A stretch of DNA of 62,908 nt, filler included, from Jimgerdemannia flammicorona (taxonomy: Eukaryota): assembly GCA_003990765.1 (NCBI GenBank). It is 3 parts of 3 records of this genome, joined end to end, with 100 filler letters (N's around TTAATTAATTAA, not from the genome) between each part and the next. Parts side by side here need not be neighbours in the genome. Positions count along the whole stretch, not along the records: positions 1 to 20,919 come from RBNJ01001568.1; 2 more parts are not named here. The stretch is one strand, 5' to 3'. A program made the translations under genes and the position numbers. Of the stretch, positions 1,663-58,810 are shown piece after piece (the stretch's first letter is position 1; each line of letters starts with the position of its first letter). The notes beneath the pieces are model-generated. The model was not told the origin of the DNA. It saw only the letters and a program-made list of their open reading frames with translations, and searched no databases.

Positions 1663-2584
1663 GTTTGTATATGTTCAGAAGTTGTGGTTGTTGTTTATTT
1701 TGGTTCTCTATTCAATATATCTCAATGTTCAGTATATATGTATTTGGTCCTGTTTGGTAAGATTCTGTTTATATAAATCTTGTGTTCCGTGACTTCATAT
1801 TGACTCAGCTTTGTATACTGTGACTTTGGTTTGACTCAGCTTTATGACTGAGCAGGTGATTTCCAGATTTGTTCAGAGGTTGCGTGTGATTTTGCTGGCT
1901 TGTTTGGAGAGTGATATGTATGTGATTTCAGTGGCTTGGAGGTTGTGCACTTACATAGATATAGAGAGAGCTCAGGATGCTTCATACTTAGGTTCTTCTT
2001 TCTTGGTTTAAGTCTTTTTCTTATTGAATTGTCTTTGAGGCAGAATTGGTCCAGCTGTTAGGATTTACTTAACCATAGTCTTGATTCTTACCAGATACTA
2101 TTATTGATAATCATAACCAACTAGATGTCCTTGTTTTTGAATTTTCCTTATAAGCTATTTAGATAGTATATTGAATAAATAGTCTACTCTTATACTATTT
2201 CATACTTCATCATTGGCAACATATTCAAGGCCAACAGTGTTCAGTAGTAACTCAAGTTTTGTATAAAAGGGTTTAAATTCCTCCTTACCATATATCAAAT
2301 TTGAGGTTATGAAGTTTGATTCAAGATTTAGTAATTATGATTTTACTGCAATATTGAGCAATCATAAGTTGTTTGAGTCTAGAGACTATGGGATAGTCTC
2401 TATATTCTGGGGTATTATTTACTATATTCTAGATAACAACTGTAAGTCAAGTGTTCTATATGAGGGATTTTTCAGGAAGAGTTCATCACCATTCTTCAGT
2501 AGATCCTTGGAAGAATGTAAAAACTCAACAGACATAGGCCATAGTAGTAACAAAGAGTTGTTCCAGAGTGTAGTCTTAATTGTT

Positions 2585-3086
2585 GAGGAGGAAGAAGGCC
2601 CAGCGGGAGCCAAGGGAGCGAACCCAGAGCCAGTGTCAAAGCGAACGGAAGACATGTGGAAGAGCATGTATAAGGGGGACGAACAAAGAACATAACCGAA
2701 ATTGCATCAGCCATTTATTACCATGTAAAAACGCGGTCCTTATATACAAAATACGACATCCCAAAAGGGAGGACGCGCCACAACTCGGGGCGAACCAAAT
2801 TAGGAACCACATGACTGCCGGAGATAGGCGGAGATAAAGAGGGAGCCAATCCCAGTTGCAGGATAAAAATCACAAACAAACACAAACAAAACAAATCCAA
2901 ATCGAGATTAAAAAACATCCGCAGACCCCGGAGGGGTGAGCGCGAGCGAGGGGTGAGGCCGAAACAGAGCGAGCCACAGCAAGCCTGAGCGAAGCGAGGG
3001 GCCGAAGGCAGCAGAGGGGAGCGGAGTAAGGCCGAGACCCCAGAGCGAGCGTGAGACCCCAGAGGGGGCAAGGATGTTTTTTAATC
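2585..3086 (-). repeat. PLE 3' pseudo-LTR with a 15-bp stem (2906-2920/3072-3086) around a 151-nt GC-rich loop
   Basis: GATTAAAAAACATCC and GGATGTTTTTTAATC are exact reverse complements. The sequence is repeated at 6243-6743. Confidence 0.9.
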
Positions 3087-5165
3087 CTCTCCAGCAGAAC
3101 CGGAGGCACCAGAAGGTGATGAAAACGCAAAGCGAGAGCAATGGATTGAAGAAGAAACAGAAGGAAGATGCGAACGAGCAATCAGAGGGCGTCGGGAAAG
3201 AGATGAAAGTCCATGGCGTGAAAGAGAAGAGCACAGGATGGTATCAGGGCGTTGAGCAACCCAGCGAGTATGATCAAATGGTATGACAAGAATTGGGGGT
3301 GGGAAAGAAGAGGGGGTATGGAGAGGGTAAGGGGGGAGAGAGGGAAGGGAGGGGGGATAAAGAGGAGAGAGGAGGGTAGAGCGAACAACAGACCATTCAA
3401 CAGAAGCAAGCAGATCACGAACGATAGAAATAGGGTAGGCACGACAATGGACCATGAAGTTACCAAGAACCCGAACAGCAGACACCCAATCAGAACGACG
3501 GGAGCAGCAGAGTGCAAGACGACGAGCCTCACCCCAAACACATTCAAGAAGAGTGCGATGAGGATGGTTGGACACGAAGTCAGGGAACTGTTGGGAACGG
3601 GGAAAACGAGAATAAACAACAGTTCAGAAAGGAGAAAAAGAAATGGAAAGGTCCAAAAAGGGAATACTAGTCGTACCGCACACCCAGGTAATAGAATGGT
3701 GGGGAGGGTAGACACCCAGGAACACACTAGGGATATCAATACCAGCAATAGTGAAGACAATAATGTCATCAATGTATCGGCGAAAGAAGATGTCCCCAGC
3801 CCGAAACGCAATGGAAAGAGGTGAAGTAATATCACGTAACACACGCAATTCATGGGCCAGGCCAATGAGGTTGGCAAGGGTGGGAGCACAGTTCGTACCC
3901 ATGGCAATACCAGAAGTCTGGTGAAAGGAGCCAAGGGCCAACTCAAAATAATTAGAGCCGCAGACAAGGAGCATAAGCTCAACAATGGAAGCCAGCAAAA
4001 CCAGGGAATCCAAAGGAAAAACCAAGGAACCCAAGAAGCGAAGGCAATCATCGATCTCATCAAAATGAATAGCAGTATAGAAGGAAGAGAAGTCACCAGA
4101 GGCCAAATGGGAAAAACGGTGAACAGGCACAATGGTGGAGCAGAGAAGGGCGAGCTCCTGAGTATCACGAAGAATAGTATACTCAGGCCCAAGACAGTGT
4201 TGTAAGAGAGCCATCCAGGAGAGAAAGAAGTGGGATAACCACTTCGAAATCTTGGTGGTAGGAGAACTGTAAGCAGCCATAATAGGATGCCAAGCCAAAA
4301 CAGGCTTGTGAACTTTAGGAAGAGCATAGAAAACTGGAAGAGAAATATCCGGGGAGGACAAAGAGTCCTGGAAGAAGTTAAAAATGGGGTTCGCGAATGG
4401 GGAATCCAAAAGCAATCTAGCATGAGCCAGAGAAACCCGAAGAAGAGTGAGAATCTCATCCAATCCAAGAGCACTAGGCTCATAAGCCGTGGCTCGAAGG
4501 AGGGCAGAAAGGCCATCAAGGTAGAGCAACTTAGGAATAAGTGCAAAACCCTGATTCTTATCAGTGACTGTGAGCAAATGCATAGGCAATTGCTTGACCA
4601 ATTTAAGCATGGTACGCACGGTATGGTCCGAAACCAAGCAAGAGCGAGCACGTCCAGGAATGGACAATGAGCAAGCCATGTCAAGGAATATGCAGTGTGA
4701 AGAGACATTGGGAGGGGGGACCCAATTGCTAGGAACAAAATAGCGAGAGGGCATCTCACCACGATCTTGAAAGAAGATGGCAAGGTCAAGAGCACGACGA
4801 AAACTGGTTAGACGAGCCGGATCAGTGAAGGAGAATTGTGAGGGAGTTGCAGGAAAAACAAAGTGAGGACCCAAGGATAAGGCAAAGACTTGAAGGGGAG
4901 AAAGGGGGCAGTCAGCCGAAGAAAAAGGAGCAGATAAAAGAGTTCCAAGAGAAGAATAAACCCGAAAGTTCAGGACAAGCAACTGGGAAAGACAAAGGGG
5001 GAACAACATGAGGAACCACTCACGGTGTACCAGAAGCGACAACGGAATCCGAGAAGGGACGGGGACACTGGGGGAGAACCACGCCGGGGGGAAGTTTAAG
5101 AGCGGGAGGCCTTCCCCTTCCCTCTGACTTTTTTTGAAGGTGGCGAACTCGACGAATGGGAGCAC
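3081..5165 (-). pseudogene. PLE reverse transcriptase (ORF2) with one in-frame TGA at 3624-3626
   Basis: Motifs LSLGPHFVFP, TDKNQG, FYALPKVHK..PI, GDFSSFYTAI, GIAMGTNCAPTLANL, FRRYIDDI, FLDLSI. The same frame continues past the TGA as TVVYSR..SNHP..GEARRL..CS (thumb); ORFs 3624-5165 and 3081-3575 share one frame. Confidence 0.9.
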
Positions 5166-6312
5166 ACCCCATCAGAGTGCCAGACCTTGCGGCCACAGGC
5201 TTTCGTGCAGCCCTTACATTCAGGGGCATGTGGAGAGGAGGCGGAGGAGGAACCGGCAGAGGAGGCCGAAGGCGAGCAAGCAGCCGAAGGGGCAGCAGCG
5301 CGAGGAACACCACCATGAGGACAGACGGACTTGGCCGGGTGCCAGTAGGCACAGTGGAGGCGACCGGAGCAGACAGCACAAGGCCAGGCCCCGACAGGGC
5401 GAGAACCAAGTTGGCGGCCATGCTTGGGGGCAGGGGGAATGGAGGAGGAAGCCTTGGCGGGGGAGGGGGACCGGGAAGAGGCCGACGAAGCCTGGTTGGG
5501 CTTGGCGGGGGTCTTGGCAGGGGTCTTGGAGGGGGCCTTGGCGGCGGCGGCAGCGAAGGAACGAACCTCAGCACGAGCAGCAGCACGAGCTTTGGCACGA
5601 ATGGCCTTGGAGACCAAAACCTCAGGGGAGGCACGGAGGGGAGCAGTGGCGGCAGTGCGAGCAGCAGCGGCGGCACGTGATGACTCCTGCTTGTGAAGAT
5701 GAGTGACAAAGGAAGTGCCGGCAAGGAGGAAACAATGCACAGTGTCGATGTTGGCGGCGACCAAAGGAACCTCGTGGATGGCAAAGCCACAGAAAGGGGC
5801 GGCATCTGAAAGGTGGGAGGAGGCGAAGGCCACGAAAGTGGCACAGGCATGGTGGAAGGCAGTGGAGGCGGCGGCGGCAGAAGCAGCAGCGGCATCAGCG
5901 GCGGCGAGTTTGGCGGCGGCGGTGGTGGCACGAACCTCTTCAGAGAGGGCTTGGCGGCGGGCCTCAGGGAGAATGGAGTAGTGGACGGTGGGCAGAGCGA
6001 CGATGTCGATGTCACAGCGGAGACGAGCCTCCTTGGCGGAGAGGGCAAGAACTGACCAGAACTGAGAGAGGAGCGGACAACCAGAAGGATGAAGGTCCAG
6101 GGGGAGGGAAAGGATGGCAGAAGAGACGTAGGTCTCGAAGGAGACAGTGGCGGGGGTAAAGGCAGGGGGAGGGGGAGGAGGAAGCACCTCATCCATGAGC
6201 TCATCGACGAGGATGGAGGCCCCGAGGGCAGGCAATACAGCAGGGAGGAAGAAGGCCCAGTGGGAGCCAAGGGAGCGAACCCAGAGCCAGTGTCAAAGCG
6301 AACGGAAGACAT
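5096..6312 (-). pseudogene. PLE ORF1: Ala-rich helical/coiled-coil-like protein with two C-x2-C-x8-WH-x4/5-C-x-H motifs; 1-bp frameshift near 6244
   Basis: ORF 5096-6235. The two outer repeat copies read ..TCCTCCTC where the internal copy reads ..TCCTCCC; restoring that T joins ATG 6312 (MSSVRFDTGSG..) to this ORF. Confidence 0.75.
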
Positions 6313-7064
6313 GTGGAAAAGCGTGTATAAGGGGGATGAACAAAGAACGTAACTGAATTTGCATCAGCCGTTTATTGCTATGTAAAAATGTGGTCCTTAT
6401 ATACAAAATACGATGTCCCAAAAGGGAGGACGCGCCACAACTCGGGGCGAACTGAATTAGGAACCACATGACCGCCAGAGATAGGTGGAGATAAGAGGGG
6501 AGCCAATCCCAGTTGCAGGATAAAAATCACAAACAAACACAAACAAAACAAATCCAAATCGAGATTAAAAAACATCCGCAGACCCAGGAGGGGTGAGCGT
6601 GAGCAAGGGGTGAGGCCGAAATGGAGCGAGCCGCAGCGAGCCCAAGCGAAGCAAGGGGCTGAAGGCAGCGGAGGGGAGCGGAGTAAGGCCGAGACCCCGG
6701 AGCGAGTGCGAGACCCTGGAGGGGGCAAGGATGTTTTTTAATCTCGATTTGGATTTGTTTTGTTTGTGTTTGTTTGTGATTTTTATCCTGCAACTGGGAT
6801 TGGCTCCCCTCTTATCTCCGCCTATCTCCGGCGGTCATGTGGTTCCTAATTCAGTTCGCCCCGAGTTGTGGTGCATCCTCCCTTTTGGGACGTCATATTT
6901 TGTATATAAGGACTGCGTTTTTATGTGGCAATAAATGGCTGATGCAAATTCGGTTATGTTCTTTGTTCGTCCCCCTTATACATGCTTTTCCACATGTCTT
7001 CCATTCGCTTTGACACTGGCTCTGGGTTCGCTCCCTTGGCTCCCGCTGGGCCTTCTTCCTCCTC
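6243..7064. repeat. PLE 5' pseudo-LTR extended into a ~335-bp fold-back (6243-6577 pairs with 6729-7064)
   Basis: 6729-7064 is the near-exact reverse complement of 6243-6577; loop 6578-6728. Confidence 0.92.
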
Positions 7065-9076
7065 TGATATTATTATCTACAGCAAGATAGCTGAGGAACA
7101 TCTGCAGTACATCCAGCAGATGATAGAAAAGTGGAGACAGTATGATCTTTATATCAAGCCCAAGAAGTGCAAATTCATGGAAATTGAGATTATCTATCTT
7201 GATCATATCATTAATCAAGATAGAATACATACAGATACTCTCAAGATTTAAGCAGTAGCAGCTTACCCAAGGCCCACCACAGTTACTGAAGCCCAAGCCT
7301 TCATGGAACTTACCTCATACTCCTGCCAGTTTATTAGAGAAATCTCTAATATTGCAGAACCAATCTATAAACTCAATAAGAAGAATACTAAGTTCCAATG
7401 AACTGGCAGATAACAAAAAACATTTAAAGAACTTAAGGTCAGACTGACCCAGACACCTATCCTCAGAAGAACTGATTGAACTCAAGAATTCATCCTGCAG
7501 ACAGATGCAAGTGCCCAAGAACTAGGAGTAGTCCTAGCTCAAAAGAAAGATAAAGTAGAGTATGTCATTGCATACCTAAGTTGAGGAACCCAAGAAGCTA
7601 AAAAATAATATGATTCCTATAAGTTGGAATGCCTTGCAGTCATCTGAGCTATAGAAAAGTTCCACTACTACCTTACTGGAAGATACTTCACCATTCAGAC
7701 AGACCACTCTGCTCTCACTTGGCTACTGACTACTAGGCAATCTAAAGGAATCTACATATGCCAGATGGATTATGAAGTTGCAAGCATATGATGTAATCAT
7801 CATGTACTGCTCAGAAAGAATCAATGTCAATGCAGATGCCCTCTTATGGATACTCTGAAGGACTTCCAACCAGCAAATTAATTATGAATAAAGAGCTCTA
7901 AAATGAAATAATTATCTATCTGGAACAGTGAAAGATGTCCCAATATCTGGAAGAATGAATACAAATAATTATCAATAGAACATGGAAACAATTTGAAACT
8001 GATGAAGAAACATTGAAGAAAAGAAAGCTACTAGTTATACCAGAATACAAGAAGGAGAAAGCAATGAAATCAGTATATAAACTTAGCTATCTGAGAGAAA
8101 CAAATACCTATGATAAAGTAAGAAGAACAATATGGTGGCCAGGAATAGAGGAAGATATCAGACAATTTGTCAAAATCTGCAACAAATGCCAGAAACAGAA
8201 ACAAGATCAATGAAATCAAGCCCCAGAATCAGCACACATAGAACTGGTACCATTTGCCTATATTGCAAGATGTGATTAGTCCTCTACCCCTAACTTTGAC
8301 TAGCAACTGATATATCATTGTTATTGTAGACCTTTTCGTGAAATGGATAGAGGTAGGACCTCACAAGGAAGCCAAAGTATAGTCAATTGCTGATTTCTTT
8401 AACAAAGAAATCATCTGCTGGTTCAAGACCCCAATATAAGTAACCACAGACAGAGGAACAGAATTCATAAACCAGTTCTCTGAGGTTCTCTACAAAAAGT
8501 ACAAGATCTAGCACATTCAGACCATAGCATACATACTATCCTCAGGGAAATAGACAGGTGAAAAGGACCAATAAGACCCTCAAAAATGCTATTGTCAAAA
8601 TCTGTAATAATTACATAAACTGGGATCACTATCTGCTAATAGCATTATCTGCTCTCCAGGATATTTGATCACAAAGCATCCATTTTACCTCTTGGAAAAT
8701 GCTGTTTAGAGAAGAAGGTTCTCAAGAAACCCTATTGTCTAATAGAGATACTATATGGAAATGTATAGATAGAGAAATATAGAGACTATATTAAATCAGG
8801 AAGAAGGCTGAGGATTATATAACCAAGGTGCAGGCACTACAATAGAATAATACAGAGAAGGTTCACAAGCTCCTGGAGATCATCAAAATAGGAGATAAAG
8901 TTCTGATATATCAGAATATAGTAGAAGCTTCATGGTCATGAAAACTAGAGCCTAAGTTGGAAGGATCTTACCTTGTATAAGATATAAAAGAGACTACCTT
9001 TTGGCTATGAAAACTCTCATATACAATCATTCATACTATCATTCACTAAAACTGACTCAAGAAGTATCATGGCTAG
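7065..9076 (+). mobile_element. Degenerate Ty3/Gypsy pol (RT C-terminus, RNase H, integrase); host of the nested element at 9077-17224
   Basis: DIIIYSK..EEHL, FILQTDAS, KLECLAVI, TDHSALTWL, IWWPGI..CNKCQ, TDRGTEF, EGSY motifs, with many stops. Confidence 0.88.
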
Positions 9077-10539
9077 TGTAACAGACCATAACGTACCACC
9101 TGAATTATAACTTAGCCAGATGACACGAACAATTAGCATACTTACTCAGCATGATGTGACTTCCAGTGTATCATAGTTACTCATGCCCACCACACTTATA
9201 ATTAGTCAAGACACCAGATCAGGATTGTTTACCTGTGTCCTGAGGACACACTCATGTCCAGTGGACACACTTATGTCCTGCGGACACACTCATGTCTGGC
9301 AGACACACTCATGTCCTACGGACACACTCATGTCCTGTGGACACACCTGTACCCAGAGGACACACCCAAATATTACCAAAGATAGCAAATCTATAGTTAG
9401 CCGCATAGCAACCAGATAGTAACTAACTTGTATAAATTACCCCAGAGGTGAGAGTGAAAAAAACCTCAGTCCGAAATACAAATACCAAACAAGCCTCTAA
9501 AGATTGAGCATTGGTCCCCTTTCCACTCTGGTCCACTTTCCGATACAAAGCAGATTTTGCTGCCAAGTTCGAGGAAGAACTTTGCCACCCTTGGAACTAT
9601 TGGTTTGCTTGCCAGACAAGCCTGAAGATTTGCCACCGAGTTCAAGGAAGAACTTCGCCACTGTTTTCTAGAAGATCGCCATTTCCGAGTTATCCTCCAC
9701 CTTTCCAAGAAAGCCGCCTTGCTCAAGTCAGTTTCTGATGCAACTTCGCAGTGATCTGTTCACACAAATGAAGCCAGTCTTTGATGCAACTTTGCCAAGA
9801 GACCCTTTCCAAGAATGCCACCAGTAGTTCATATTCCCAGTTGAAGCCGCCAATTTAGAAGAATCCATGCCATCCCATTTCCCAGTTAGAACCCTGCCAA
9901 TTCAGGAAGAATCCATGCCATCCGAGTTAATTCCCAGTTAAGCTGCCATTTTCAAGAAGTCCGCCGATTCAGGAAGAATCCGCATCATTCGCTGTTTTCA
10001 AGCTTTCCGCATTCCCAGAGAATTCGCGCCACCCGAGTCGTTGTCCCCAGAGGAGCCCAACCCATGACATCCAAGTTATTCATCATTCCCAGTAAGCCTG
10101 GAAGAATCCGCCACCTGTACTATTTCCAGTAACAAGAACCCGTGCCATATATTCCCAGTGAGCCAAATCGAGTTATCCGCCAAATCCACATAAGGAGAAC
10201 TGCTAAATTGCCAGACCGTCATGCATAAGGAGATTGTCGTGCTACACAGAGATCGTCACGCAGAAATCAGAAGATCGTCACTCAAGAAGGAAACTGCTCA
10301 TGCTATACACAAATTCTGCCATTCCCAGTTGACCAAAGAAGGAGAAGACACACAAATCGCCGCTACACCCAGAGAACTGTCCCAATAAGGAAATCGCTCG
10401 CACAGTATCCAGATCTTGACTATTATACTACTAAATACCAAAAACATTTTGTTGCTTTTAACAAAGTAACTGTGTGCTCAAGCCAAACTACATCAACCTC
10501 CAACCTTGTAATTTGCCTCTATTGAGCTGGCATGTTACA
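9077..10539 (+). repeat. 5' LTR
   Basis: Direct repeat of 15763-17224; TG..CA ends with a 7-bp inverted repeat; TATAAAT near 9431. Confidence 0.95.
9243..9365 (+). repeat. ~19-bp tandem repeat (GGACACACTCATGTCCNGN) in the LTR, about six units; also present in the 3' LTR
   Basis: Directly visible. Confidence 0.85.
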
Positions 10540-10559: not shown

Positions 10560-11124
10560 GATTTCAAAATCGACATAACTTTTCAGCTCACAAGAACCCA
10601 CAGTCAAACTGGATACATTTGATACAACACCAACCTCTGCTACTATAGGAGAACCAGTCATTACTAGTATTTGGACAGGAAGAGAAGTAATTACCTCAAG
10701 ACTTGCTAACTACCCAGCATCAGAAGGATCTCAACCAGAAGCAGGAGGCAGTACAGCCTGAAATCCTCAGCCAGATCAACCAGATCAACCAGATCAACCA
10801 GATCAACCAGACAATACAGGCAGCCCTGCTGGAGATTTTGGAGAACTTACACAAGAACTAGAAGACTTTATTACCCGGACCCAACACCTTACAGCCAGAT
10901 ACCCCACACCAGTTCCACCAATTTCACCAATAGAACCCCTACCACAACCTCTTGCAGAACCAGAAGTAGCTCCTACAAGGATACCTAGGCCTACTCCATC
11001 TCATCCAAGGACCAGAACACCATCTTCTAGATACCCAAGCACCCTGGTCTCTAGTGACAGTTCAGAAAGTGAATCAGAATCAGAATCCAAATTCGAACCA
11101 GAATCAGAAGAAAGTGATGAAGAA

Positions 11125-12030
11125 ATGGCCACCTCATTACCAATCTTTGCAGGATACCCAGAGGAAGACCCCAGAGAATTCCTTGATGGAATCGAAGGAA
11201 TCGCAGCCTTGAGAAATCTCTCAGATGAAAGGAAAATCGCCATCTACAAAGCTCAGCTCAGAGAACTAGCCAGAGGGATTTTCCATCGAACAGCAAACAA
11301 CCCAGATTCCAAACTAGTAAGACAGATACAAGCAGCAGTCTCCTATGAGCTAGAATTTCAGGCCATGGTCTACTGGCTCATAGAAAAGTATGCAGGAAAT
11401 GAAACCCGCCACAAGGCTCAGGAATCCATCATGGGAATGAAGATGAATCTTGGAGAATCACCCAGAGCCTTCTTCACAAGAATCCAGAAGAGAATGCACT
11501 CTGCCAGGTTCAATGCCACCAACCAGGACATCATAGGTCCAATGACCTTCATGAATGGAATTCCCCTGAATATTGCCCAGCATGTCCACACCCTAGGCAT
11601 CAGAAGGTCTGAAGAGCAAGTAGATACAGCCCAAGGATTCTTTGATGTCAGGCAAGGAACTACCTGGAGTGACCATGACAAGAAGGAAGATAAAGAAGAT
11701 ATCCTGGTCAAAGCCCTACAAGGACTTCTTCAAGGACAAGAAAGGTCTGAAGAAAGAAGGCCAGCCAAAGAAGAAAAGAAGGACAGAAGTGAAATTCAAG
11801 ACCTCAGCTCCAAGTTAGACCGATTGGTTGGGCAGATTGAAAAACTCACCATACGTGAAAATCAGGACTACCAAAACAACAGAGGATACCCACCACAGAG
11901 GAACCAAGGTTATCCAACAAGAGATAACAGGAATTACCAGCAAGAAGAAAGAAGGTACCCTGCCTGGGACAGAGCCCAAGTCTAATGCTTCCACTGTGGA
12001 CAACTCAGACACTATGCCACTGAATGTGAC
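11125..12030 (+). pseudogene. gag: Gypsy gag with CCHC zinc knuckle
   Basis: FAGYPEEDPREFL..ESPRAFFTR; after a TAA the frame continues CFHCGQLRHYATEC. Confidence 0.85.
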
Positions 12031-20919: not shown

Positions 20920-21019
20920 NNNNNNNNNNNNNNNNNNNNNNNNNNNNNNNNNNNNNNNNNNNNTTAATTAATTAANNNNNNNNNNNNNNNNNNNNNNNNN
21001 NNNNNNNNNNNNNNNNNNN
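20920..21019. other. Assembly gap (100 nt, central TTAATTAATTAA linker)
   Basis: N-run with an artificial all-frame-stop linker. Confidence 0.97.
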
Positions 21020-24792: not shown

Positions 24793-25995
24793 AGATATCA
24801 GAAGGTCTGAAGAGCAAGTAGATGTAGCCTAAGGATTTTTCAATATTAGATAAGGAACTATCTGAAGTAACTATGATAAGAAGAATGATAAGAAGGACAT
24901 CTTAGTTAAAGCCCTAAAAGAACTCCTCCAAGGATAGAGAAAGAAAGCCAGCCAAAAAATAGAAAAAGGAAAGAAATGAAATTCAAGACCTCAACTCTAA
25001 GCTAGACTGATTGGTTAGACAAATTGAAAAACTCACCATATATGAAAATTGAAGTTACCTACAAGACAACAGGGGATATATACTATAAAGAAATCAAGAT
25101 TATTCATCTAGAGACAATAGGAGCTATTAGTAAGAAGAAAGAAGATATTCTATTCAAGACAGAGCTCAAGTTCAATGTTTCTATTGTAGATAATTTGAAC
25201 ACTATGCCACTGAATGTAACAATAAAAGAAGTAACTAAAGGGACTTAAAACTATCAAATTAAAGGAATGAAACTCAGTATAAAAAGACTAAAGCTTACCT
25301 TGTTAAAGACTTTGAAAAAGAAAGTAATAGTAAAGACTATAGTAAACTAGGCTTATATCCAGCTAAAGTCATTGCTAGAAAGACAGTCTATCTAACAGAG
25401 AAAAGGAAGAGACCTGTAGAAAGGCCATCCAGAAATATCAGCAGAAGAATTATTTAAGAAGAAGATGAGAAATATGAAGAAGAACAAGTAGAAATACCTC
25501 CATAGTCTCTTTTACCTTTTATTCCTGAAACAAATGAACTATCTCCAGAGAATGAAAAAATGGTACAAGAAGAACAAAAGCCTACTATCTGAAGGTCTAA
25601 GAGGAAATACACTCTGAAGATTATGCTTAGAGATATCTATAATAAAGTCTGACAAATAATTCAAGAAGTCAAGATGAAAGTCTCTCTCCTCCAGTTTTTA
25701 CAACTAATACCTGCTGGAGTCTAAAATAAATTATTTAGAACTATCAGATCTAGTACTGACTGAGTTCCAATTCTACAACAAGAACCAGCTTCTATCTTTA
25801 TTCAAGCTATAAAGAGACATATCAGCACCTATCTACATTGAGATATTAGAGGACAAAAAGTAAAGATTCTTATTAACACAGGAGTAGCTGTCTGTATAAT
25901 TACTAAATATTTTTTTTTTTTTTTTTTTTTTTTATAGTCCCTTGGACTCCGTCTTTATTACCAGTCTATAAATAAGTATACAATATCACCATCCA

Positions 25996-28900
25996 CTATC
26001 CGATCCCCATCGGGTGGCCCCACCCCACCTTGTCACATATAAAGACCACCCTCTCACCAACAACTCCAACTCTCCCACCACTCTGCCCACAGATTTTCAC
26101 CACCAAGCAGCGCCTCCGACCCCCCTGCAGCCCCCAATCAAGCCACCAGCCTGTCAAGGTATCCTCCATAAGGAACTGCCACCTTGCTAACCAGCTCCCC
26201 AAGCTCGGTCGCTTCTCCTCCTCAAATACAAATAGCCAGTGGCTGGCCAGCCCAACCCAAATAGCCAACACCCAGCCTAGAGTAATCCACTCTTCCCCAA
26301 CCCCTCCTATCAATCAATCCCACAGGTCCTCCCACCTCCCCTGTACATCATCACCTGTATGCCTTACCCCCAAGCGGTCCCCAACGGCCTGCCAAAAGTC
26401 TCCCAGCACCTCACACTCCCCTAGCCAATGTTCCGGCGTCTGTACCAATCCCCCTTCCTGCCTGACATTATGGCACTCCTTGCAGTCAAAGCAGCCCCCT
26501 ACAACAAGGTGTCCTGAGTGGAAGTTAAGCATCACATTCCTCCTCAGTATACGCCACCAGACTACCCAGTACTTCAGCGGCATCCAACTCTTCACTGCGG
26601 CACTCCAGGTCCAAACCCCATGCCAGTCCCACTCCTCACCAATTCCAACTCCTTGCCAATCACTAGGCCACAGATCCTGGCCTGGACCCCTTTGGCATTC
26701 GATGCCATCACTAATGTTGAACTCCAGTAAAGGCATGCCACCCAGAAGAATGCTATCCCATCTCCACATTGCCAGGTCCCAAGCCCTCTCCCCCTCATCC
26801 CCTTACCAGTGAATACCAATGTGGTGTGCCCCCTTGGCTATCCCCCACCAGAAGCCTTTATATCTCAGTTGCGCAGTATTCGGAAGCCTAACCAATGAAA
26901 GAAGATCACCAGTCAAGCCTCTAGGCGACATCCACCTCTCCCATATCTTCTGCAGCAGGGGGACCCAGCCCCCTCCATGCAACTCCACTGCCCTCCTCAG
27001 CCACCAAGCCCTCAAGCAGTGTAGGCGTTTGGGGAAGTCCACCAGCCCAAGACCCCCTCTCACCACTGGTAGGGACAAAGTCTCCCAACCAATCTGACTC
27101 CATCTGCCAGCCCAAATCCATCCCTTGGCCACCTTCACCAATCTCTTCACTACCCAGGCTGGGAAGTCCAGATGATAGGCCAAATACCATAGCTTTGGTA
27201 GTCAGTATACATTCAAAATTGAGATCCTTCCTACCAGAGAGAAGTGTCGACCCCCCCAACCCCGCAGGTCCTCCTCCCAAATTCCAATCCTCTGCTCCCA
27301 CCACAGCCTGGGCAAAACAGACCCATAGACCGATAAATAGATGCCCAAGTACCGCACTGCCTCTCCAGTGGGGACAATTGTTCCAATAACTTCTCCTCCC
27401 ACCAAGCCATTGCCCAGCACCATTGTTTTGCACTTGTGCCAATTCAGCTTTGCCCCAGAGTTCTCCTCATACCACTCCACTGTCTTCTGGAGCTCCTCGA
27501 CATCTGCAGTCACTCTCAAACCAACCACCATATCATCCGCAAAGGCTCCAACCTTCCAGCCAATGCCATAGATAGAGAGCCCCATGATCTTCCACTGAAT
27601 CCTGTCCATCAGAGGTTCCAAGGAAAGAGCATACAAAATGGGGGACAGTGGGTCCCCCTGGGACACTCCCCTACCCAGAGGGAAAGCCACCCCTCTATGC
27701 CCATTACATATGAGCACAGCCCTACTCCTTTCCAGTAGGCTGACCATTGCCAACCGAAATGGGCCCGGAACTCCAATTCTATCTAATACTTTCGCCAGCC
27801 AGACTCGCCACACCCAGTCATAAGCCTTCTCCTGATCCAAGAAGACAAGATGCCCATCTAGTCCACAGGCTCAAGCACCTTCAATAACTCCATGTACCCA
27901 GGCCGTGCCATCTCTAATAAGCCGACCCCCTATGAAGTCTCTCTGCTCAACACCCACAATTTGCTGGGCTACCTTCTGTAGCCTTGCGACCACCACCTTA
28001 GTCACCAACTTCCTGTCCATATCTAGTAACATTATCGGCCACCAGTTCTTCCAATCCTCACACCTTCCCTTGTTCTTATAAAGCAGCATCACCAGCCCAA
28101 GGTCTTGCTCCCCCACCCATCTCCCTGATTGCAATATAGAGTCACACAGTGCTGTCAACTCCCACAATATGCCTGGGACTCCAACCATTCACTTCCAGAA
28201 GTCCCAAGGGAGGCCATCCTCCCCAGGCGCCATACCCGAGGCTGTCGCGGCAAGAACCTGGTGGATCTCATCCTCCTTTACAGACATCACCAGGTTACCT
28301 AGTCCCTCAGCTTGTGGTGGGTGCCAATCTTCTAATGTTTGGTCAATGGCTGTAGCATCCACCCCACCCTCCTCCTCACTCCACAATCCACTCTATCATG
28401 CCTTCAGCGTTCCAAGGATGTCCTGTACACCATGCACTAATACATCATCCGAGTCAAGTACCCCTTCCCACCACTGTTGTGCCCTTCTTGCTCAAAGTGT
28501 CCTTGTGAGAAACTTGGAAGGCCTCTCCCCTTCCTCCAGCCCCTGCCAATGAAGCCGTGCCACCAGGCCTTGCACCCTTGACTCTTTCTCTTCCTGCAGC
28601 ACCTGTTGCAGTTCCCCCACCTCCATCCTCACCCTCGTTATTCTCCAATCCTCTTCTCCCTCCACTGTCGCCAGTCTCGCCCACTCCTCCAGGAGCCTAG
28701 CCAATCTAGTAGAAGCCCAACACACTTTCTGCCTTTGCTGCTTCCCAGCCACTCTTCCAGCCTCGCTCCAATACATCCTGGCCATCTCTTTCATCCTCGT
28801 CCACCGAACCCCAATCGCGGCCCCTTCCTGCCACCAATTCACCACCTTCGGCTGAATGTCTTTCACCCACTCCACCCACCGGGCCTCATCATCCAACAAG

Positions 28901-29679
28901 GAGGAATTTAGGCACCAATGTCCAGACCTATCCCTACTTCCCCCAAAACACCCCTGTCCCAAGAGGCCCCAGTGATCTGACCATGGACACCATTCTACCT
29001 CTACCACCTTCCAAACATTGTGGCCCCAACAGTCAGCTGTCAGAATCCAGTCAATCCTTGTCCCCAGACCTCCAGCCCAATGTGTATATACCCTCCTGTC
29101 CCTCCAGTGCTCTCTACCAGCATCCACCAGTGCTCCTAGCCATTCAACCTCCTCCCACGTCGCTAACCCCCCACTCCTGCTCTCTGCACCCTGCCCTCCA
29201 TCAGTTCTATCCAGCCGTACATCCTGAACCATATTGAAATCTCCTCCAAGCATATCCAACCCAGCTTCAGTAAGGATCCCACTCTCCAGGAGCCCTTTCA
29301 CCCAATCCACACGCTCCCCCCGCACAGCAGGGCAGTAACAGGAGCCAACAGTGACTGGCTCCCAACCTGCACGAATCCACTCACCCCAGACCAGTCTCTC
29401 CCCCCAGCTCCTCACATCCTTTATCTCCCCTCTGCCTTTCCGAACCAGAATCCCGACCTTGCTGTTCCAAGTTGCCATACCACCCCATTCCTTAGTCCAT
29501 TCCATCCTATCAGCATCATCCTCGCACCTGACATCCTGCAAGAGAAAGAGATCGGTCTCCAATCCCTTCAACCAATTAAAAATGTTCCTGTGTCGAACCG
29601 CGCCCCTCAGCCCATTCACATTCAAAGAAAAAATGTTGGTTGTACTGTTCATAGTAAAATACGGTTTGTTCTCAATCAA
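25996..29679 (-). pseudogene. LINE ORF2 (APE endonuclease, RT, C-terminal Cys/His knuckle), several stops/frameshifts
   Basis: SLNVNGL, GGDFN, RIDWIL, SDH (APE); APGEDGLP, DQEKAYD, QGDPLSPILY, AFADD, YLG (RT); CKEC..HWLGEC. Confidence 0.93.
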
Positions 29680-29745
29680 TCCCTATTGCTCTATGCCCCT
29701 CTCCTCCTGTACCATGTCCAGATTATGTTCAGCCATCACCTCCTC

Positions 29746-31713
29746 CTATTCAGCCCTCTGAGCCTCCATTCCAGCCAACAGCTCATTCATCTCCTCATCA
29801 GCCTTCTCCTCAAAATCCTCTCGGTACTCAATGCAAGCCTCCTGCCAAAGCTGCAACCCATGGCACCTATTCCAACAGTACTCAGCCTTCTCCCCAGTGA
29901 CCACCACCAATTCCGCCTCTCTCTTCTTATCCACCTCATACCCTTCCTCCTCCAGATACACTGCAAGAATTTCTGCCTTCAGCGCCATTGCCACTCCTTC
30001 CTCCTGCAAAATTCTCGTCCAGTGCTCATCACCCATCCCATGCAAGTCCACCTCCCCCAGCTCTTCTGCCACCAGGTTATTCATCATCTGGCACATCCAA
30101 AGTAGGTTCCCCACCTCCTTTCCACCAGGGGTCGCTGGCCTCCTGCCATCCAGCATCATGGTGTCAGCTCCCGCACTTGTGTCCTCATCCCATACCTCTG
30201 GGACATCCACCAGTTCCTCCTCCCCTGCCGCCACTACTTGGTCCCCATCCAATACCTCCAGAATGCTGAATTTCACCTGCTGGATCCCCAGCATCATCAC
30301 GTCTACCCCAGACTTGTTCCTGGAAGCCGGGCCATGCCTGATAAGAGGGGAAGGGGTGGGAGAATTCTCCCAGACTTCATCCCAAACCTCCAAGGTGCCG
30401 TCAGTATATAGGTCACTAATCTTCACCTCCTTAGCCTTCTCTGACTTTGCCCCATCATTCCCACTCCTCTCACCAGCCCAGACACTCGCTCCGGCCCCTT
30501 CTGCACCTGTCTTCATGCTCGCATCCTTCTGTGGTCCACCCCCCAGCTTAGCCAGCAGATCCTTCTGCCTCTTCCGCCCCTGAGCCCTTTCCCACTGCAC
30601 CTTATCTACTCGAATCCTCTTTCCATCCACCACCTCCAGGCATGTCGACTCCTCGAAAATCTTCCAGGCCTTAGCTCGCTGTTCCACAGCCACATCCAGC
30701 TCCTCCAGCACTTCCAATAAATCTTCCTCCTCTTCTTCACTTCCTTTCACCTGTATCACCTTGAACAGGAAAGCTCCCCAGACCAACACCGAAGGCCAGT
30801 CCCTCATCTTCCCAGTAGCCTCTTTCCCAGCCAGCCGGATCCTCACATCCACATCCCCAGTCCTGAGCATGGTCCCTTCCCAGACCCTGAACCTGATATC
30901 CACCACCTCTCCATACTCTGCCATGACATCCTCCACTCTCTTCCTCGTCTCCATCGCTGTCACCATGGGCACTCCCTTCACCAGCAGTTGGACCACCCTC
31001 GGATCCCATTTCTGACACCTCACCATCAGAACACACACCTCCCCAACCACCAATCCAACCTTCAGTGTCTCCTCCAGCGGTTCAACCTCCTCAAATCCCA
31101 CCTCCACCCCCTCCAGTCCCTTCAGAAACTTCACCGAAGCCGCTCCTGCCACCTGTTTAGCGATAAGCCCCAACACCATTTTTGCCATCACTGCTAAGCC
31201 CCGGAAGTACAGCGTGACTGCGAATACCGAGATCAACTTCTTGAGTAACGGAGCCACCACCAGTCCTGTTACACCATCCGCCAGGTCCCTGGGCCTCATG
31301 CCCTTCCCACTGCTCGGCTCACCATCAGCAGTCCCATCTAGATTTTTTTCCAGATCACCCATCACACCCCCATCAGCAGTCCCCGCTCCAGCCGCTACCC
31401 CCCCAGCCCCACTCCTATGGCCCGCTAGAGAGGTACCCCCAAGAGGTTGCTGCCTGGAAGCCACCACTAGTACCTTTCCCCCTCTCAGCCAGCTCTCCAG
31501 TCCAGCTCCCTGCCGACCCCCCTTCACCTTCTCTGCAAAGCTCACCCTGTCAGACCCTTGACCTCCAGCTCCACCCCCTCTTCCACTGTGGCCCCCTGCC
31601 AGCAGGCCCCTCATACTTCCCCCCAAGCTGGGGCCTCTCCCCACTTGCTGCCATTCAAATGCTCCAGGGCCACCCTGCCTAGTACACACCTTTGGATGCT
31701 CATTGGTTGCCAT
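29746..31713 (-). CDS. LINE ORF1, RRM-like central domain, open for 655 codons
   Basis: Located upstream of ORF2; VQLLVKGVP..EYGEVVDI..RTG..VRI RRM-like pattern. Confidence 0.8.
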   Translation of the reverse strand: MATNEHPKVCTRQGGPGAFEWQQVGRGPSLGGSMRGLLAGGHSGRGGGAGGQGSDRVSFAEKVKGGRQGAGLESWLRGGKVLVVASRQQPLGGTSLAGHRSGAGGVAAGAGTADGGVMGDLEKNLDGTADGEPSSGKGMRPRDLADGVTGLVVAPLLKKLISVFAVTLYFRGLAVMAKMVLGLIAKQVAGAASVKFLKGLEGVEVGFEEVEPLEETLKVGLVVGEVCVLMVRCQKWDPRVVQLLVKGVPMVTAMETRKRVEDVMAEYGEVVDIRFRVWEGTMLRTGDVDVRIRLAGKEATGKMRDWPSVLVWGAFLFKVIQVKGSEEEEEDLLEVLEELDVAVEQRAKAWKIFEESTCLEVVDGKRIRVDKVQWERAQGRKRQKDLLAKLGGGPQKDASMKTGAEGAGASVWAGERSGNDGAKSEKAKEVKISDLYTDGTLEVWDEVWENSPTPSPLIRHGPASRNKSGVDVMMLGIQQVKFSILEVLDGDQVVAAGEEELVDVPEVWDEDTSAGADTMMLDGRRPATPGGKEVGNLLWMCQMMNNLVAEELGEVDLHGMGDEHWTRILQEEGVAMALKAEILAVYLEEEGYEVDKKREAELVVVTGEKAEYCWNRCHGLQLWQEACIEYREDFEEKADEEMNELLAGMEAQRAE

Positions 31714-32699
31714 GATACTAGTAGCTTTTCTCCAGAAACTGTGTTGAAAGTGTTGCCAAAGGGTTGTGTAACCTGAATGTTACCGGAGAAAGATGGAGGA
31801 TATCGGGATTGGTGGTTCTTATTGGTTGCTGTTATTGCAGTTCCTTGATCCTTCTTTTATATTCTTCAGGATGCTTGTGCTGTGGTCACAATGACTCACA
31901 GTTGGTCATCATTACTCATCTTGTATGCTGTATGATCTTCTTGTGCTCCGATCTGGTGGCTTGTAAGGAAAGGCTGTCTCTAGTGCTGATGTCATCATTC
32001 TGGGGTTACCATTACAATAAATACTCTCTATATAGAGTATATTGTAATCTTAGCTTTACTTTTCTCAAATATAAGAATAAAGTAATATTTTTATTACAAA
32101 ACTCTCAGATCTAACTTATTAATAATTCTAAGTCTGATCAACTTGAAATATAAGTATAGTATTTTTATTAGCATAAGAACCCAAAAGTGATATTTAGACT
32201 ACACTACTACAATAGATAATTGAAACTTAGTACTTCCTCATAAGAACTCAGAACTTAGGACCAATAGTTATCTTAATTATTTACAATATATTAATTCTAT
32301 CAGTATATAGTTTTATTACAATTTAATAGTAGCAGAAGTTATTCTCACCTATAAGTAAGCTTCTCTTAAGAAACTTACTATAAATATAGACAACTTAGTC
32401 AATATTATCAATATTATTAGTAATAATTAAGATTAAATTTATTCAGATGAGATTTGAATCAGATTTATTATATGTATAATAGATTTGAATCAACTCAGAT
32501 TTACATATCTCATAATCTAATCTAAATCATCTGGATTAATTTAAATCTTTGAATTTAAATTTTTAATAATATTATCTCTTTTTTATATATATTTGAATAT
32601 ATTTGAATATATTTGACATACTACCTTTATATCTACTACCTTTATATTTACTATCTTTATTATAATACCACATCTCCTTCTCTTCTCAGAAAGACTGTT

Positions 32700-41928: not shown

Positions 41929-42028
41929 NNNNNNNNNNNNNNNNNNNNNNNNNNNNNNNNNNNNNNNNNNNNTTAATTAATTAANNNNNNNNNNNNNNNN
42001 NNNNNNNNNNNNNNNNNNNNNNNNNNNN
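41929..42028. other. Assembly gap (100 nt, TTAATTAATTAA linker)
   Basis: N-run. Confidence 0.97.
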
Positions 42029-48495: not shown

Positions 48496-48791
48496 TTTAT
48501 TTGTTCCGTGCGCATGAAACGAGAGTGCCTGCGATATTGTTTCTCAAGTTTAATTGGTCCACGAAGCGCACCCCCCCGATGAAGCGTCAGGGACCAGCCG
48601 ATTCGAGCAAAAAAACAAGGTCTGAAAATGTAAAAATAAGTCAATTTACTTGTTTTTAACAATCATGCGATCTTGGCCTTCGTTTGGTTTAGTTCTATTA
48701 TGTAAGGTTGGTTCCTCCTGTCGAGCTTTTGATAGTCACGCGAAATGTTCGACTATTTAACCGCTGCAGGCAGAACAATGGAGGGCAAATA

Positions 48792-49676
48792 ATGGCTTAC
48801 CGGCGAATCCTACCTATGCCTCAACAAGACTTGTTATTCCCACACAACTTCCTCAATATCAATTCCAGCTATTCCAAAATATCTCTCTATTCCTATCCCT
48901 CCTACCTCCGCTGCCCCTTTCCCACATGCCCAACGACCTTCAGTAATATAGAAATTCTTCAAGCACACCTGATGCTAGAATCTCACATCATAGCAACAGC
49001 CAATGCCGTTTGGGTCAATACAATTATACCTCTCCCGTCGCCTGGTGAATTTTGTGAGAGAATAAACAACCAGATGTATATGCCTCAAGCGCAACCCCTC
49101 CCCGGCGTACCATCGAACGACACCGCAATCGATCACACAACATTGAGTCAACTTTTCTCGCAACCCCTCGGTGCAAACGGCGCAGTGCAACAATTTGAAG
49201 CAGCAATTTATACAGCCAAACCGGAGCCATATAAACAGTGTACCAGCTGCTCAACAAGGAAGAGGCGATGCCCCATACACGCCGCTGCCACCACCAACAA
49301 ACCGAAACGAACCGCGCCGGGGAAAGCGTGTGCTCGGTGCAGGATGGACAGAAAATCATGCCGTGACACACCTTGCACTCGTTGCAGCAAATCCTGCAGG
49401 ATTTGTTTAGGAGACGATAATTTTCATAGCCTCATTGCATCGTCGTTCGACGGATTGGCGTCCACAAACGAAGGCGACGTTAACTTGGCGCTCAAAACCA
49501 TCAAGGAGATCTTCGAGATCGGCGACAGATCTGGTCATCGCTACGGTCGTGAGGGCGGTGACCGCTACGCGGAATGTATCTACTCATGCGGGGGTATACA
49601 GAAACTTCGCGATCTCGAGCAACGCATGGGACATAACGGCGTTGGAAGGAACATATCCTGGCCGTCATTAAATTGA
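48792..49676 (+). CDS. Zinc-finger/Zn2Cys6-like/importin-alpha-ARM-like protein, copy 1 (1-nt deletion near 49637 alters the C-terminus)
   Basis: CPFPTC..HLMLESH, CTSC..RRCPIH and CARC..C..CTRC..C motifs. CATAACGGCG here versus CATAACTGGCG in copy 4. Confidence 0.75.
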   Translation: MAYRRILPMPQQDLLFPHNFLNINSSYSKISLYSYPSYLRCPFPTCPTTFSNIEILQAHLMLESHIIATANAVWVNTIIPLPSPGEFCERINNQMYMPQAQPLPGVPSNDTAIDHTTLSQLFSQPLGANGAVQQFEAAIYTAKPEPYKQCTSCSTRKRRCPIHAAATTNKPKRTAPGKACARCRMDRKSCRDTPCTRCSKSCRICLGDDNFHSLIASSFDGLASTNEGDVNLALKTIKEIFEIGDRSGHRYGREGGDRYAECIYSCGGIQKLRDLEQRMGHNGVGRNISWPSLN

Positions 49677-52733: not shown

Positions 52734-53071
52734 AAAATCTAGTGGTGCTATCCGAGCGATGCGAATACCAATAATGAAGCGCTGTAACGCTAACTGTTTG
52801 GGGCGTTTTTAGTCATGTGGCATTAAGGAGGCGTTGAATAGCCCAATCCTCGTACAATAAACCAAGAATGCCTCATTGTTGGGCCCGTTTCATTAAGCTG
52901 ACTGGCCAGTGGACTATGGCCAGTGCACTCTTATAAATGCCCATAAATAAATTAAAGTATTTGTATAACGAAGCCAAGTACAGTACAACCGATGCAGGCA
53001 GAGCATAGAAGAGCAACGAAGGGTACTCTAACAACACTAGTCTATTGAAATAACCACTACATCCACAAAAA

Positions 53072-54019
53072 ATGGCTTACCGACGAATCCTACCTATGCC
53101 CCAACGAGACTTGTTATTTCCGCATAACTTCCTCAATAGCAATTCCAGCTACTCCAAAATATCTCTTTATTCCTGCCCCTCTTACCTCCGCTGTCCCTTT
53201 CCCACGTGCCCGACCTTCAGTAATATAGAAAATCTTCAAGCACACCTGATGCTAGAATCTCACGTTATAGCAACAACCCATGCCGTTTGGGTCGATTCAA
53301 TTATACCTCTCCCGTCGCCTGATGAATTTGGTGAGAGAATAAACAACCAGATATATATGCCTCAAGCGTACGTCAACTTGCAACCCTTCCCCGGCGTACC
53401 ATCGAACGACACCGCAGTCGATCACACAACATTGAGTCAACTTTTCTCGCAACCCCTCGACGCAAACGGCGCAGTGCAACAAATTGAAGCAGCAATTTTT
53501 ACGGCCAAACCGGTGCCATATAAACAGTGTACCAGCTGCTCAATAAGAAAGAGGCGATGTCCCGTACACGCCGCTGCCACCACCAACAAACCGAAACGAA
53601 CCGCGCCGGGGAAAGCGTGTGCTCGGTGCAGGATGGACAAAAAATCATGCCGTGACACACCTTGTACTCGTTGCAGTAAATCCCGTAGGATTTGTTTAGG
53701 GGACGATAATTTTCGCAGCCTCATTGCATCGTCGTTCGACGGATTGGTGTCCACAAACGAAGGCGACGTTAGCTTGGCGCTCAACACCATCAAGGAGATC
53801 TTCGAGATCGGCGACCGATCCGGTCATCGCTACGGTCGTGAGGGCGGCGACCGCTATGTGGAATGTATCTACTCGTGCGGGGGTATGCAGAAACTTCGCG
53901 ATCTCGAGAAACGCATGGGACATAGCTGGCGTTGGAAGGAACAGATCCTGGCCGTCGTTAAATTGATTCACGGTGACGCTGACAACATATATGCCGATAT
54001 TTTTGCGGGCGAGGAGTGA
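53072..54019 (+). CDS. Zinc-finger/Zn2Cys6-like/importin-alpha-ARM-like protein, copy 2 (open ORF, 315 aa)
   Basis: Uninterrupted ORF; TATAAAT at ~52932. Confidence 0.85.
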   Translation: MAYRRILPMPQRDLLFPHNFLNSNSSYSKISLYSCPSYLRCPFPTCPTFSNIENLQAHLMLESHVIATTHAVWVDSIIPLPSPDEFGERINNQIYMPQAYVNLQPFPGVPSNDTAVDHTTLSQLFSQPLDANGAVQQIEAAIFTAKPVPYKQCTSCSIRKRRCPVHAAATTNKPKRTAPGKACARCRMDKKSCRDTPCTRCSKSRRICLGDDNFRSLIASSFDGLVSTNEGDVSLALNTIKEIFEIGDRSGHRYGREGGDRYVECIYSCGGMQKLRDLEKRMGHSWRWKEQILAVVKLIHGDADNIYADIFAGEE

Positions 54020-58182: not shown

Positions 58183-58810
58183 TTCGCTATTGTGCCTATA
58201 AACCGAGGTCGGCCTTGTGCTTTGTGTCATGGGTCTACGCGCATCTTCAATGGGGGTCTGCGATATTTACATATATCTGCATTTCCAACAGGGCCTATTA
58301 TCCTGTCCCTCTGATGCATGAAGCAACGATAAGTATGCAAGTACGACAGAAATAACTAATCGTCAGTGCTGTAGTTCGTTCGCAGGTGTAATGGGAAAGC
58401 AGGCGGTCCGATTAAATTGCGAAAGCTATACTGCATGAGAACGAATCGCAGTTCCGTCACCGCAAGCCCACGATTGATTATATCGATTATCGTATATGAG
58501 ATGCACGATCACATGATCGTGGGTATTCTGCTGAATAGTCTATAATAGGGATAAGTGGCATTGGTCATCTCCCCGAAAGGCAGGGTTGTGTGAGGGTATG
58601 TAGTGCAACGAATCGAATTTCGTGCGGAACAGTTGTGACGCAAGCGGAAACGGACCCGACAAAATAATATCTTATCCATATCCGATCCAAGTTGTATAAA
58701 TACTTGTATAAGGAAGCCAATTACAGTACAACCGCTGCAGGCCTAGAAGAGCAACGAAGGGTATTCTAACAGCATTCGTCTTACTAAAATAACCACTGCA
58801 TCCATAAATA

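Follow-up and report, generated by a model that had tools for sequence, protein, structure and literature searches.

How does a retroelement with no detectable endonuclease come to end in inverted copies of its own terminal sequence, joined at a hairpin and finishing at the same base on both sides? The question is raised by an insertion in a 62,908-nt stretch of DNA from Jimgerdemannia flammicorona (assembly GCA_003990765.1; hereafter the window), which consists of three joined pieces separated by runs of N at 20920-21019 and 41929-42028, with 1-20919 alone coming from contig C1568. The original prediction was that the 3′ end of the cDNA snaps back on a built-in stem and self-primes second-strand synthesis to a defined end. 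Having followed the element through the genome we favor, with moderate confidence, a model in which this endonuclease-less, two-ORF Penelope is reverse transcribed from both ends of an existing DNA break and the products are joined at the hairpin.

The anatomy of the insertion (Table 1) is as first described. Perfect 15-bp stems (2906-2920/3072-3086 and 6563-6577/6729-6743), each with 151 nt inside, open both pseudo-LTRs (pLTRs), and the ORF2 stop codon lies within a stem arm. Departure of the 5′ copy from the direct repeat occurs immediately past 6743, at the predicted stem end, and the sequence then folds back: 6244-6577 and 6729-7062 match over 334 nt (94%), and 2585-2920 and 6729-7064 over 336 nt (95%), with the end at 7064 corresponding to base 2585, so that the inverted termini match as claimed. 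We refer to the 336-nt arm as X, to base 2585 as X1 and to the loop as L. Because the loop is itself an imperfect rod-like palindrome (fold z-scores of -3.8 as DNA and -3.5 as RNA), we count the module as a 181-nt hairpin. All 19 differences between the two adjacent arms of the window are transitions, which rules out an assembly fold-back; decay at CpG and CpA is seen family-wide and these transitions are consistent with it. The window copy is dead, with a premature stop in ORF2 and a 1-bp loss in ORF1. At other loci canonical monomers span 4.46-4.50 kb. Transcription may start near X128, a position that the TATA-like box and pieces ending at X117-129 (loci L031 and L119) both fit.

Table 1. 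Features of the Penelope insertion and its flanks, in window positions.
Feature	Position	Strand	Remarks
Left flank	1955..2584	.	unrelated high-copy repeat; its other copies show no contiguity with the right flank
Whole insertion	2585..7064	-	4480 bp; monomer, common loop orientation; 3′ pLTR - ORF2 - ORF1 - 5′ pLTR - inverted arm
Arm X of 3′ pseudo-LTR	2585..2920	-	336 nt; X1 (2585) is the invariant host junction and putative reverse transcription start
3′ pLTR hairpin, 181 nt	2906..3086	.	15-bp stem plus 151-nt imperfect palindrome; cDNA (+) strand purine-rich; GCGAAGC near centre
ORF2	3081..5171	-	Penelope-type RT and thumb, without GIY-YIG; stop 3081-3083; in-frame stop 3624-3626 in window copy
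ORF1	5096..6312	-	start within 5′ pLTR; frameshifted near 6243 in window copy
A7 run, ORF1/ORF2 overlap	5129..5135	-	candidate -1 frameshift site
7-nt 'tail' adjoining X1, ORF1 side	6236..6242	+	putative primer-alignment region
5′ pseudo-LTR	6243..6743	-	direct repeat of 2585-3086
TATA-like box	6397..6403	-	about 85 nt upstream of ORF1 ATG
Hairpin at inversion axis, 181 nt	6563..6743	.	both orientations in the family
Inverted arm X′	6729..7064	+	7064 is the second host junction and putative second RT start, bottom strand
Right flank	7065..9000	+	high-copy, decayed LTR-retrotransposon pol region

The window holds several other repeats. The pol region of the right flank is, by its motifs, presumably Gypsy-like. 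Farther along, 9217-9387 and 10762-11985 hold a 19-bp tandem array and the gag-like ORF, with PDQ repeats, of a neighboring LTR element. The minus strand at 25907-31800 carries what we take from its motifs to be an L1-type element, with a poly(A) tail at 25907-25933 and a presumably endonuclease-like ORF at 28495-29682. Three related open frames of ~330 codons (48693-49673, 53054-54016 and 58808-59812) follow one another at 4-6-kb spacing as a tandem repeat family.

The layout is that of a family. In the 231-Mb genome the hairpin junction has 142 exact matches and the ORF2-stem junction 102; reversed controls have none. We classified 70 junction loci, picked by junction pattern (the 30 first listed and 40 more of 100 listed, from the total of 142): 48 have the common orientation, one of them with an ORF1 fragment on the far side too, in 8 the orientation of the loop with respect to ORF1 is flipped, 11 are head-to-head dimers and 3 are without ORF1. 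The outer arm reaches X1-6, as bounded by BLAST, in 54 of the 56 monomer-type loci. Since loci picked by their junction cannot test whether the axis is invariant, we collected a separate set by ORF1 alone (n=15, including the window). Eleven reach the hairpin and all eleven turn inside it, nine exactly, one with a 19-bp loop deletion and one switching in the loop at paired positions; three others stop at a contig end, and in the last, foreign DNA takes over after 17 nt of X. The inversion point and termini, which the original prediction proposed to compare among genomic copies, are thus fixed family-wide. In the copy that switches within the loop (L253:2115-2300) the axis lies at mutually paired positions (~40 and 113), forming a flip/flop chimera. 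A flipped loop at the 3′ pLTR had no match in the genome with one mismatch allowed.

Less regular forms are also present. Tandem copies, in which the stem is followed by ORF2, occur at L013, L029 and L103, and some arms start after X1, at X27, X55, X88, X98 or X119. At two loci (L067/L092 on contig C456 and L072 on C750) it is the 3′ arm that begins at X98, reflecting either a second start site or a shared deletion. Locus L119 (C7023:5000-10254) is a dense collection of short pieces on both strands with recurrent ends at X59, X128-129 and loop 88-89, some of them consisting of X and then a flipped loop; it was probably copied from a complex parent. One DNA run, a soil metagenome with a small share of the words, covers all 30 bins and lists no joints, and so speaks neither for nor against the axis.

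ORF2 is open over 696 codons in L101, L114 and L115, and ORF1 of the intact copy L114 encodes 405 amino acids with a helical alanine-rich middle and two Cys/His clusters, and has no match in Pfam. An alignment of ORF2 contains DKN, PKxHK..RPI, YxRYIDD and RGYP, which we take to be the motifs of Penelope-type RTs. The model built from this alignment (pLDDT 85) has telomerases as its six best structural matches and predicts an RT that folds like telomerase; folding from the single sequence reached a pLDDT of only 37, and a single-sequence search matched no solved structure. The absence of an endonuclease, as originally proposed, is supported. ORF2 has no Pfam match to a C-terminal GIY-YIG domain, the query does not carry the motif that is found in one of 64 aligned proteins, and 116 residues follow the thumb motif compared with 240-268 in five relatives that have a GIY-YIG motif. 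Neither ORF contains an N-terminal GIY-YIG of the Naiad/Chlamys type, a detectable nicking or Rep domain, or a Pfam match to the tyrosine recombinase or RNase H of DIRS-like elements; the model comprises RT plus thumb only. Our first protein search returned one match, the sole named close relative is a partial protein from Racocetra fulgida (36% identity) and a pattern scan of metagenome contigs found no relatives.

A search with a distant relative uncovered further Penelope families in the same genome. The RT of the second is 41% identical to that of the first, with DNA similarity limited to 27 bp. Both of its two copies have a 3.9-kb unit whose pLTR begins with an A/T stem of 17 bp enclosing 166 nt, and in both the head-to-head axis lies exactly at this stem. 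The role of the hairpin as joining point, proposed for the window, therefore extends to a second family; the stop-in-stem arrangement is not kept there, since the reading frame ends ~30 nt ahead of the stem. On the cDNA strand, the hairpins of both families are rich in purines and have GCGAAGC close to their middle; the two have a local match of 34 nt, which 0 of 500 shuffles reach. In a tree of 169 RT matches the two families group (SH-like support 0.99) with P0002, P0003, P0004 (Racocetra fulgida) and P0006, none of which has a nuclease motif; the tree holds no named Coprina or Athena references. One second-family copy (L242:799-870, on C720) ends at its 3′ side in ~70 nt of reiterated A-rich units that look like repeated, telomerase-like copying of a terminal template; another (L243) has a short oligo(A). 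The third family (L258 and L259, on C24122 and C787) has a single long ORF and direct repeats of 264 bp, is bordered by TTAGGG and lies within a 26-kb contig; with no inverted arm within the 5 kb examined it is of conventional type.

We then asked where the first family inserts. Among 25 full insertions there is neither a short target duplication nor a mirrored host flank. The host telomere repeat is TTAGGG, and arrays of it stand at contig ends, which together with the Racocetra fulgida relative suggests a fungal host; tandem TTAGGG is absent from all 135 flanks of 60 nt, and the elements are flanked by internal repeats rather than terminal sites. A search covering canonical hammerheads found the core in 0 of 57 copies and no Rfam match. 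Empty sites reconstructed from related repeat copies indicate a blunt joint at L107 (0 bp) and losses of ~1 bp at L095, ~6 bp at L096 and ~7 bp at L101, the last two extrapolated from alignments that end up to 60 bp from the junction. Long direct duplications flank L105 and L130, with 543 and 770 bp of them observed at 97-98% identity; in full these probably measure ~880 and ~1000 bp, and such duplications are detectable only within the 0.1-1 kb of flank examined. The window insertion sits between two different repeats. This spectrum of sites would fit entry at existing breaks.

Several lines of evidence bear on the polarity of X1. The host bases at -1 to -4 match the 7-nt tail beside X1 at 120 of 228 positions for 57 3′-type ends and at 162 of 288 for 72 hairpin-arm ends (background 0.25), the two kinds of end being no different (p=0.42) in a collection whose junction pattern favors X1 and under-counts ends elsewhere. 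Over positions -3 to -7 there are 294 matches compared with 176 expected and 135-205 in shifted registers, and among junctions mismatched at -1 or -2 (88 of 134, the total after one misclassed junction was removed) the enrichment persists at -3, -4 and -7. The match keeps a fixed register and tolerates gaps. Element DNA other than ORF1 precedes 27 of 268 X1 junctions. At L062, L066, L098, L100, L101 and L107, pieces that start at X1 and have variable inner ends are stacked at the 3′ and inverted-arm sides; on the inverted side, the order going inward from the host is X1-330, X1-329, X at L098 and X, L, 779 nt of ORF2, X at L101. The host-side end of every stack is X1. In target-primed reverse transcription of non-LTR elements the invariant end is the start, and by this rule we read X1, with its variable inner ends, as a start. 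The nucleotide that the original prediction regarded as a defined stop appears, on this evidence, to be where reverse transcription begins at both ends: the fixed-register pairing is the same, restarts are stacked inward, both sides of dimers end at X1 without mirrored host flank, and the loop is flipped in 8 of 56 monomer-type loci. Reverse transcription often stalls and restarts within the 181-nt hairpin, which makes up 5% of the unit and holds 11 of 21 break points (p ~1e-9 relative to the unit, 0.015 relative to its first 502 nt). That count omits three repeats within L119 and three of opposite orientation; two further break points, in L102 and L120, fell outside the filter and both are in ORF2.

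Variants carried by the arms bear on their origin. Transversion variants are common to arms within an insertion in 282 of 481 cases, compared with 11% between insertions, and beyond X128 in 42 of 166. Because arms within an insertion share private transversions, they appear to be remade from one source each cycle, and arms and dimer halves almost always have private variants in common. In the window and in L093 the inverted arm tracks the adjacent arm rather than the distal one, the window resting on one transversion. We considered a scheme in which the distal pLTR serves as template for the inverted arm and copying continues off the end of the cDNA, and set it aside: the window and L093 favor the adjacent arm and the other copies do not discriminate.

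We envision the following scenario. The element would enter DNA breaks that it does not itself make, and each host 3′ end would pair loosely, in a fixed register, with the 7 nt of element RNA beside X1 and prime reverse transcription at X1; the sequence signature is present at both ends and the enzymology is extrapolated from it. In a monomer X1 adjoins the tail nowhere but at the 5′ pLTR-ORF1 junction, which makes internal initiation probable; such initiation is shown in vitro for an Anolis element (PMC11167929). A jump to the 3′ pLTR copy could follow, which would keep all arms identical. The two inward cDNAs would have the same polarity and could pair only via the hairpin, either through the 15-nt stem or after one arm is first extended by a short snap-back. 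One long and one short cDNA would yield the window layout, a loop carried by the other cDNA the flipped form, and two long cDNAs a head-to-head dimer. After fill-in by host repair the joint would be blunt or lack a few bases, or the insertion would be left with a long duplication or with flanks unrelated to each other. Several points weigh against priming from both ends. Independent RNPs should sometimes mix subfamilies, and snap-back explains the sharing of private variants without extra assumptions; the adjacent arm is the closer match to the inverted arm in the window and in L093; the hairpin turn of the long cDNA on a second pass, after read-through on the first, is left unaccounted for; and a host or LINE nuclease could act in trans.

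The alternative closest to the original prediction is that one target-primed cDNA ends at the stem, self-primes outward, stops at X1 (monomer) or at full length (dimer) and joins the other host end. The turn exactly at the stem end, the private variants common to all arms and dimer halves, the adjacent-arm match in the window and L093 and the switch at paired loop positions in L253 all agree with it, and self-priming at inverted-junction palindromes was proposed in the available text of PMC3846280. Snap-back gives no cause for stopping at X1, however, and dimer synthesis would continue into the left host flank, yet a mirrored flank is absent from the 25 insertions. It does not anticipate restarts on the inverted side with X1 fixed and the stem-side end variable, or mismatch-tolerant, fixed-register pairing that is equal at inverted and 3′ ends, and it requires an extra step for flipped loops. 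Snap-back thus retains a place as a possible sub-step, but a single cDNA stopping at a defined end is not supported as the main route and we consider it unlikely.

Less probable again is inheritance. Here a long RNA that starts within the inverted arm or outside it, in sense or (following the 2013 proposal) antisense direction, would include the entire hairpin, and a flipped copy would stem from a parent that was itself flipped or dimeric. The TATA-like box is almost palindromic, and flips are confined to the 5′ hairpin, with none at 3′ ends, as expected if ends are inherited separately. Against this, arms are homogenized within insertions, beyond X128 too; flipped L109 has a private transversion common to both loops, at one site; and the 48:8 bias suggests that each cycle remakes the common form. 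We give still less credence to a free linear or hairpin cDNA with fixed ends, end-joined into breaks after parvovirus-like hairpin transfer with flip and flop. This would account for the two loop orientations, the dimers and, in both families, the imperfect palindrome whose cDNA strand is rich in purines and has GCGAAGC at its core, but neither ORF has a nicking or Rep domain, the flip:flop ratio is 48:8 rather than ~1:1 with the 3′ loop never flipped, and end joining predicts contiguous microhomology and ragged ends instead of the gapped, fixed-register pairing seen.

A nuclease supplied in trans by another Penelope or a LINE, with the layout made as in ordinary endonuclease-bearing Penelopes, seems to us very improbable. 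Candidate sources exist in the endonuclease-like ORF of the window's L1-type element and in 34 GIY-YIG matches in the genome, but a Penelope RT lies within 1.5 kb at none of the 10 GIY-YIG loci examined of these 34, the third Penelope family has no room for a nuclease and the 25 insertions show no short duplication. Palindromes are a known amplification artefact and the assembly is fragmented (35,354 contigs), but an amplification or assembly chimera, which the original prediction had already discounted, can be regarded as refuted by the 19 transitions between the arms, by an axis fixed at 142 places, absent from reversed controls and recurring in the second family, and by unique host flanks on both sides.

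Priming from both ends of a break, the reading we prefer, can be set beside what is known of related elements. With its telomerase-related RT and thumb, and pseudo-LTRs that are direct or inverted with partial tandems, the family is Penelope-like. According to the available text of PMC3846280, published in 2013, the typical Penelope structure, exemplified by Pen2a_Av of Adineta vaga, combines two direct pLTRs with an inverted pLTR that overlaps by 15 bp, and fungal and protist nuclease-less elements are said not to have this organisation. The window family resembles Pen2a_Av, as far as it is described there, in its direct pLTRs, the adjacent shorter inverted pLTR overlapping by 15 bp, the ORF start in the pLTR, the TATA-like box and the junction palindrome. 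Unlike Pen2a_Av, it lacks GIY-YIG, an 8-10-bp target duplication and a retained 30-40-bp tail, and it has two ORFs with a probable frameshift, >140 copies, flipped loops and full dimers. The layout and the self-priming idea are thus already published for endonuclease-bearing Penelopes. Our literature search, with subscription papers and supplements outside its scope, found no nuclease-less fungal element with fixed inverted ends.

In the accessible parts of PMC8557442, the endonuclease 'very likely' determines tandem and inverted pLTRs, and Athena and Coprina are defined by telomeric attachment and hammerheads; Coprina-1_Alen, in the portion of PMC13159263 available, is a telomeric two-ORF Coprina. 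From these descriptions the window family shares with Coprina and Athena a DKN-type RT with thumb, no endonuclease, an ORF1 plus RT, direct terminal repeats, a fungal-type host and priming on an existing DNA end. In contrast to them it is non-telomeric, with no TTAGGG at its ends and no canonical hammerhead core, and its inverted termini are fixed. The element has the layout of nuclease-bearing Penelopes, yet it carries neither their nuclease nor the telomeric attachment and hammerheads of Coprina and Athena. PLE-X (Chara, Selaginella) and MjPLE01 are likewise nuclease-less and away from telomeres, PLE-X being genome-wide in Chara braunii, but they belong to other clades with a CxC motif and hammerheads, and no fixed hairpin axis is described for them in the same accessible parts (PMC8557442).

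In vitro, the Poseidon element PAc of Anolis carolinensis has fixed internal RT starts and both strands are extended (PMC11167929, as available); the starts near the pLTR-ORF junction and the extension of both DNA strands are the points of likeness. PAc makes its own cut in the target, to which its start site has no homology; the window family is nuclease-less, and its 7-nt tail would pair loosely with the host end. L1 bridges DNA ends, as reported in the available text of PMC11702581, and LINE-1 twin priming and bridging likewise involve priming of both target ends on element RNA, give inverted products and join ends that lie far apart. In LINE-1 twin priming, the second priming event takes place internally at varying positions; in the window family the two ends begin at one and the same base, and a hairpin belonging to the element forms the joint.

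The full layout in two nuclease-less families, one of them with >140 copies, contradicts the statements in PMC8557442 and PMC3846280 as these stand in the available text. More tentatively, it is possible that a nuclease-free, telomerase-like lineage spreads by healing breaks from both sides, that a dedicated single-stranded DNA hairpin, whose position and core are conserved in both families, serves as a programmed stop-and-join site and that RT and RNA alone make the inverted layout. An RT, its RNA and two DNA ends constitute a minimal system for a direct test of how Penelope ends arise. Should priming occur at both ends of a break, a telomerase-like RT would be bridging breaks within chromosomes and could generate 8-kb palindromes, duplications of kilobase size and junctions between unrelated loci.
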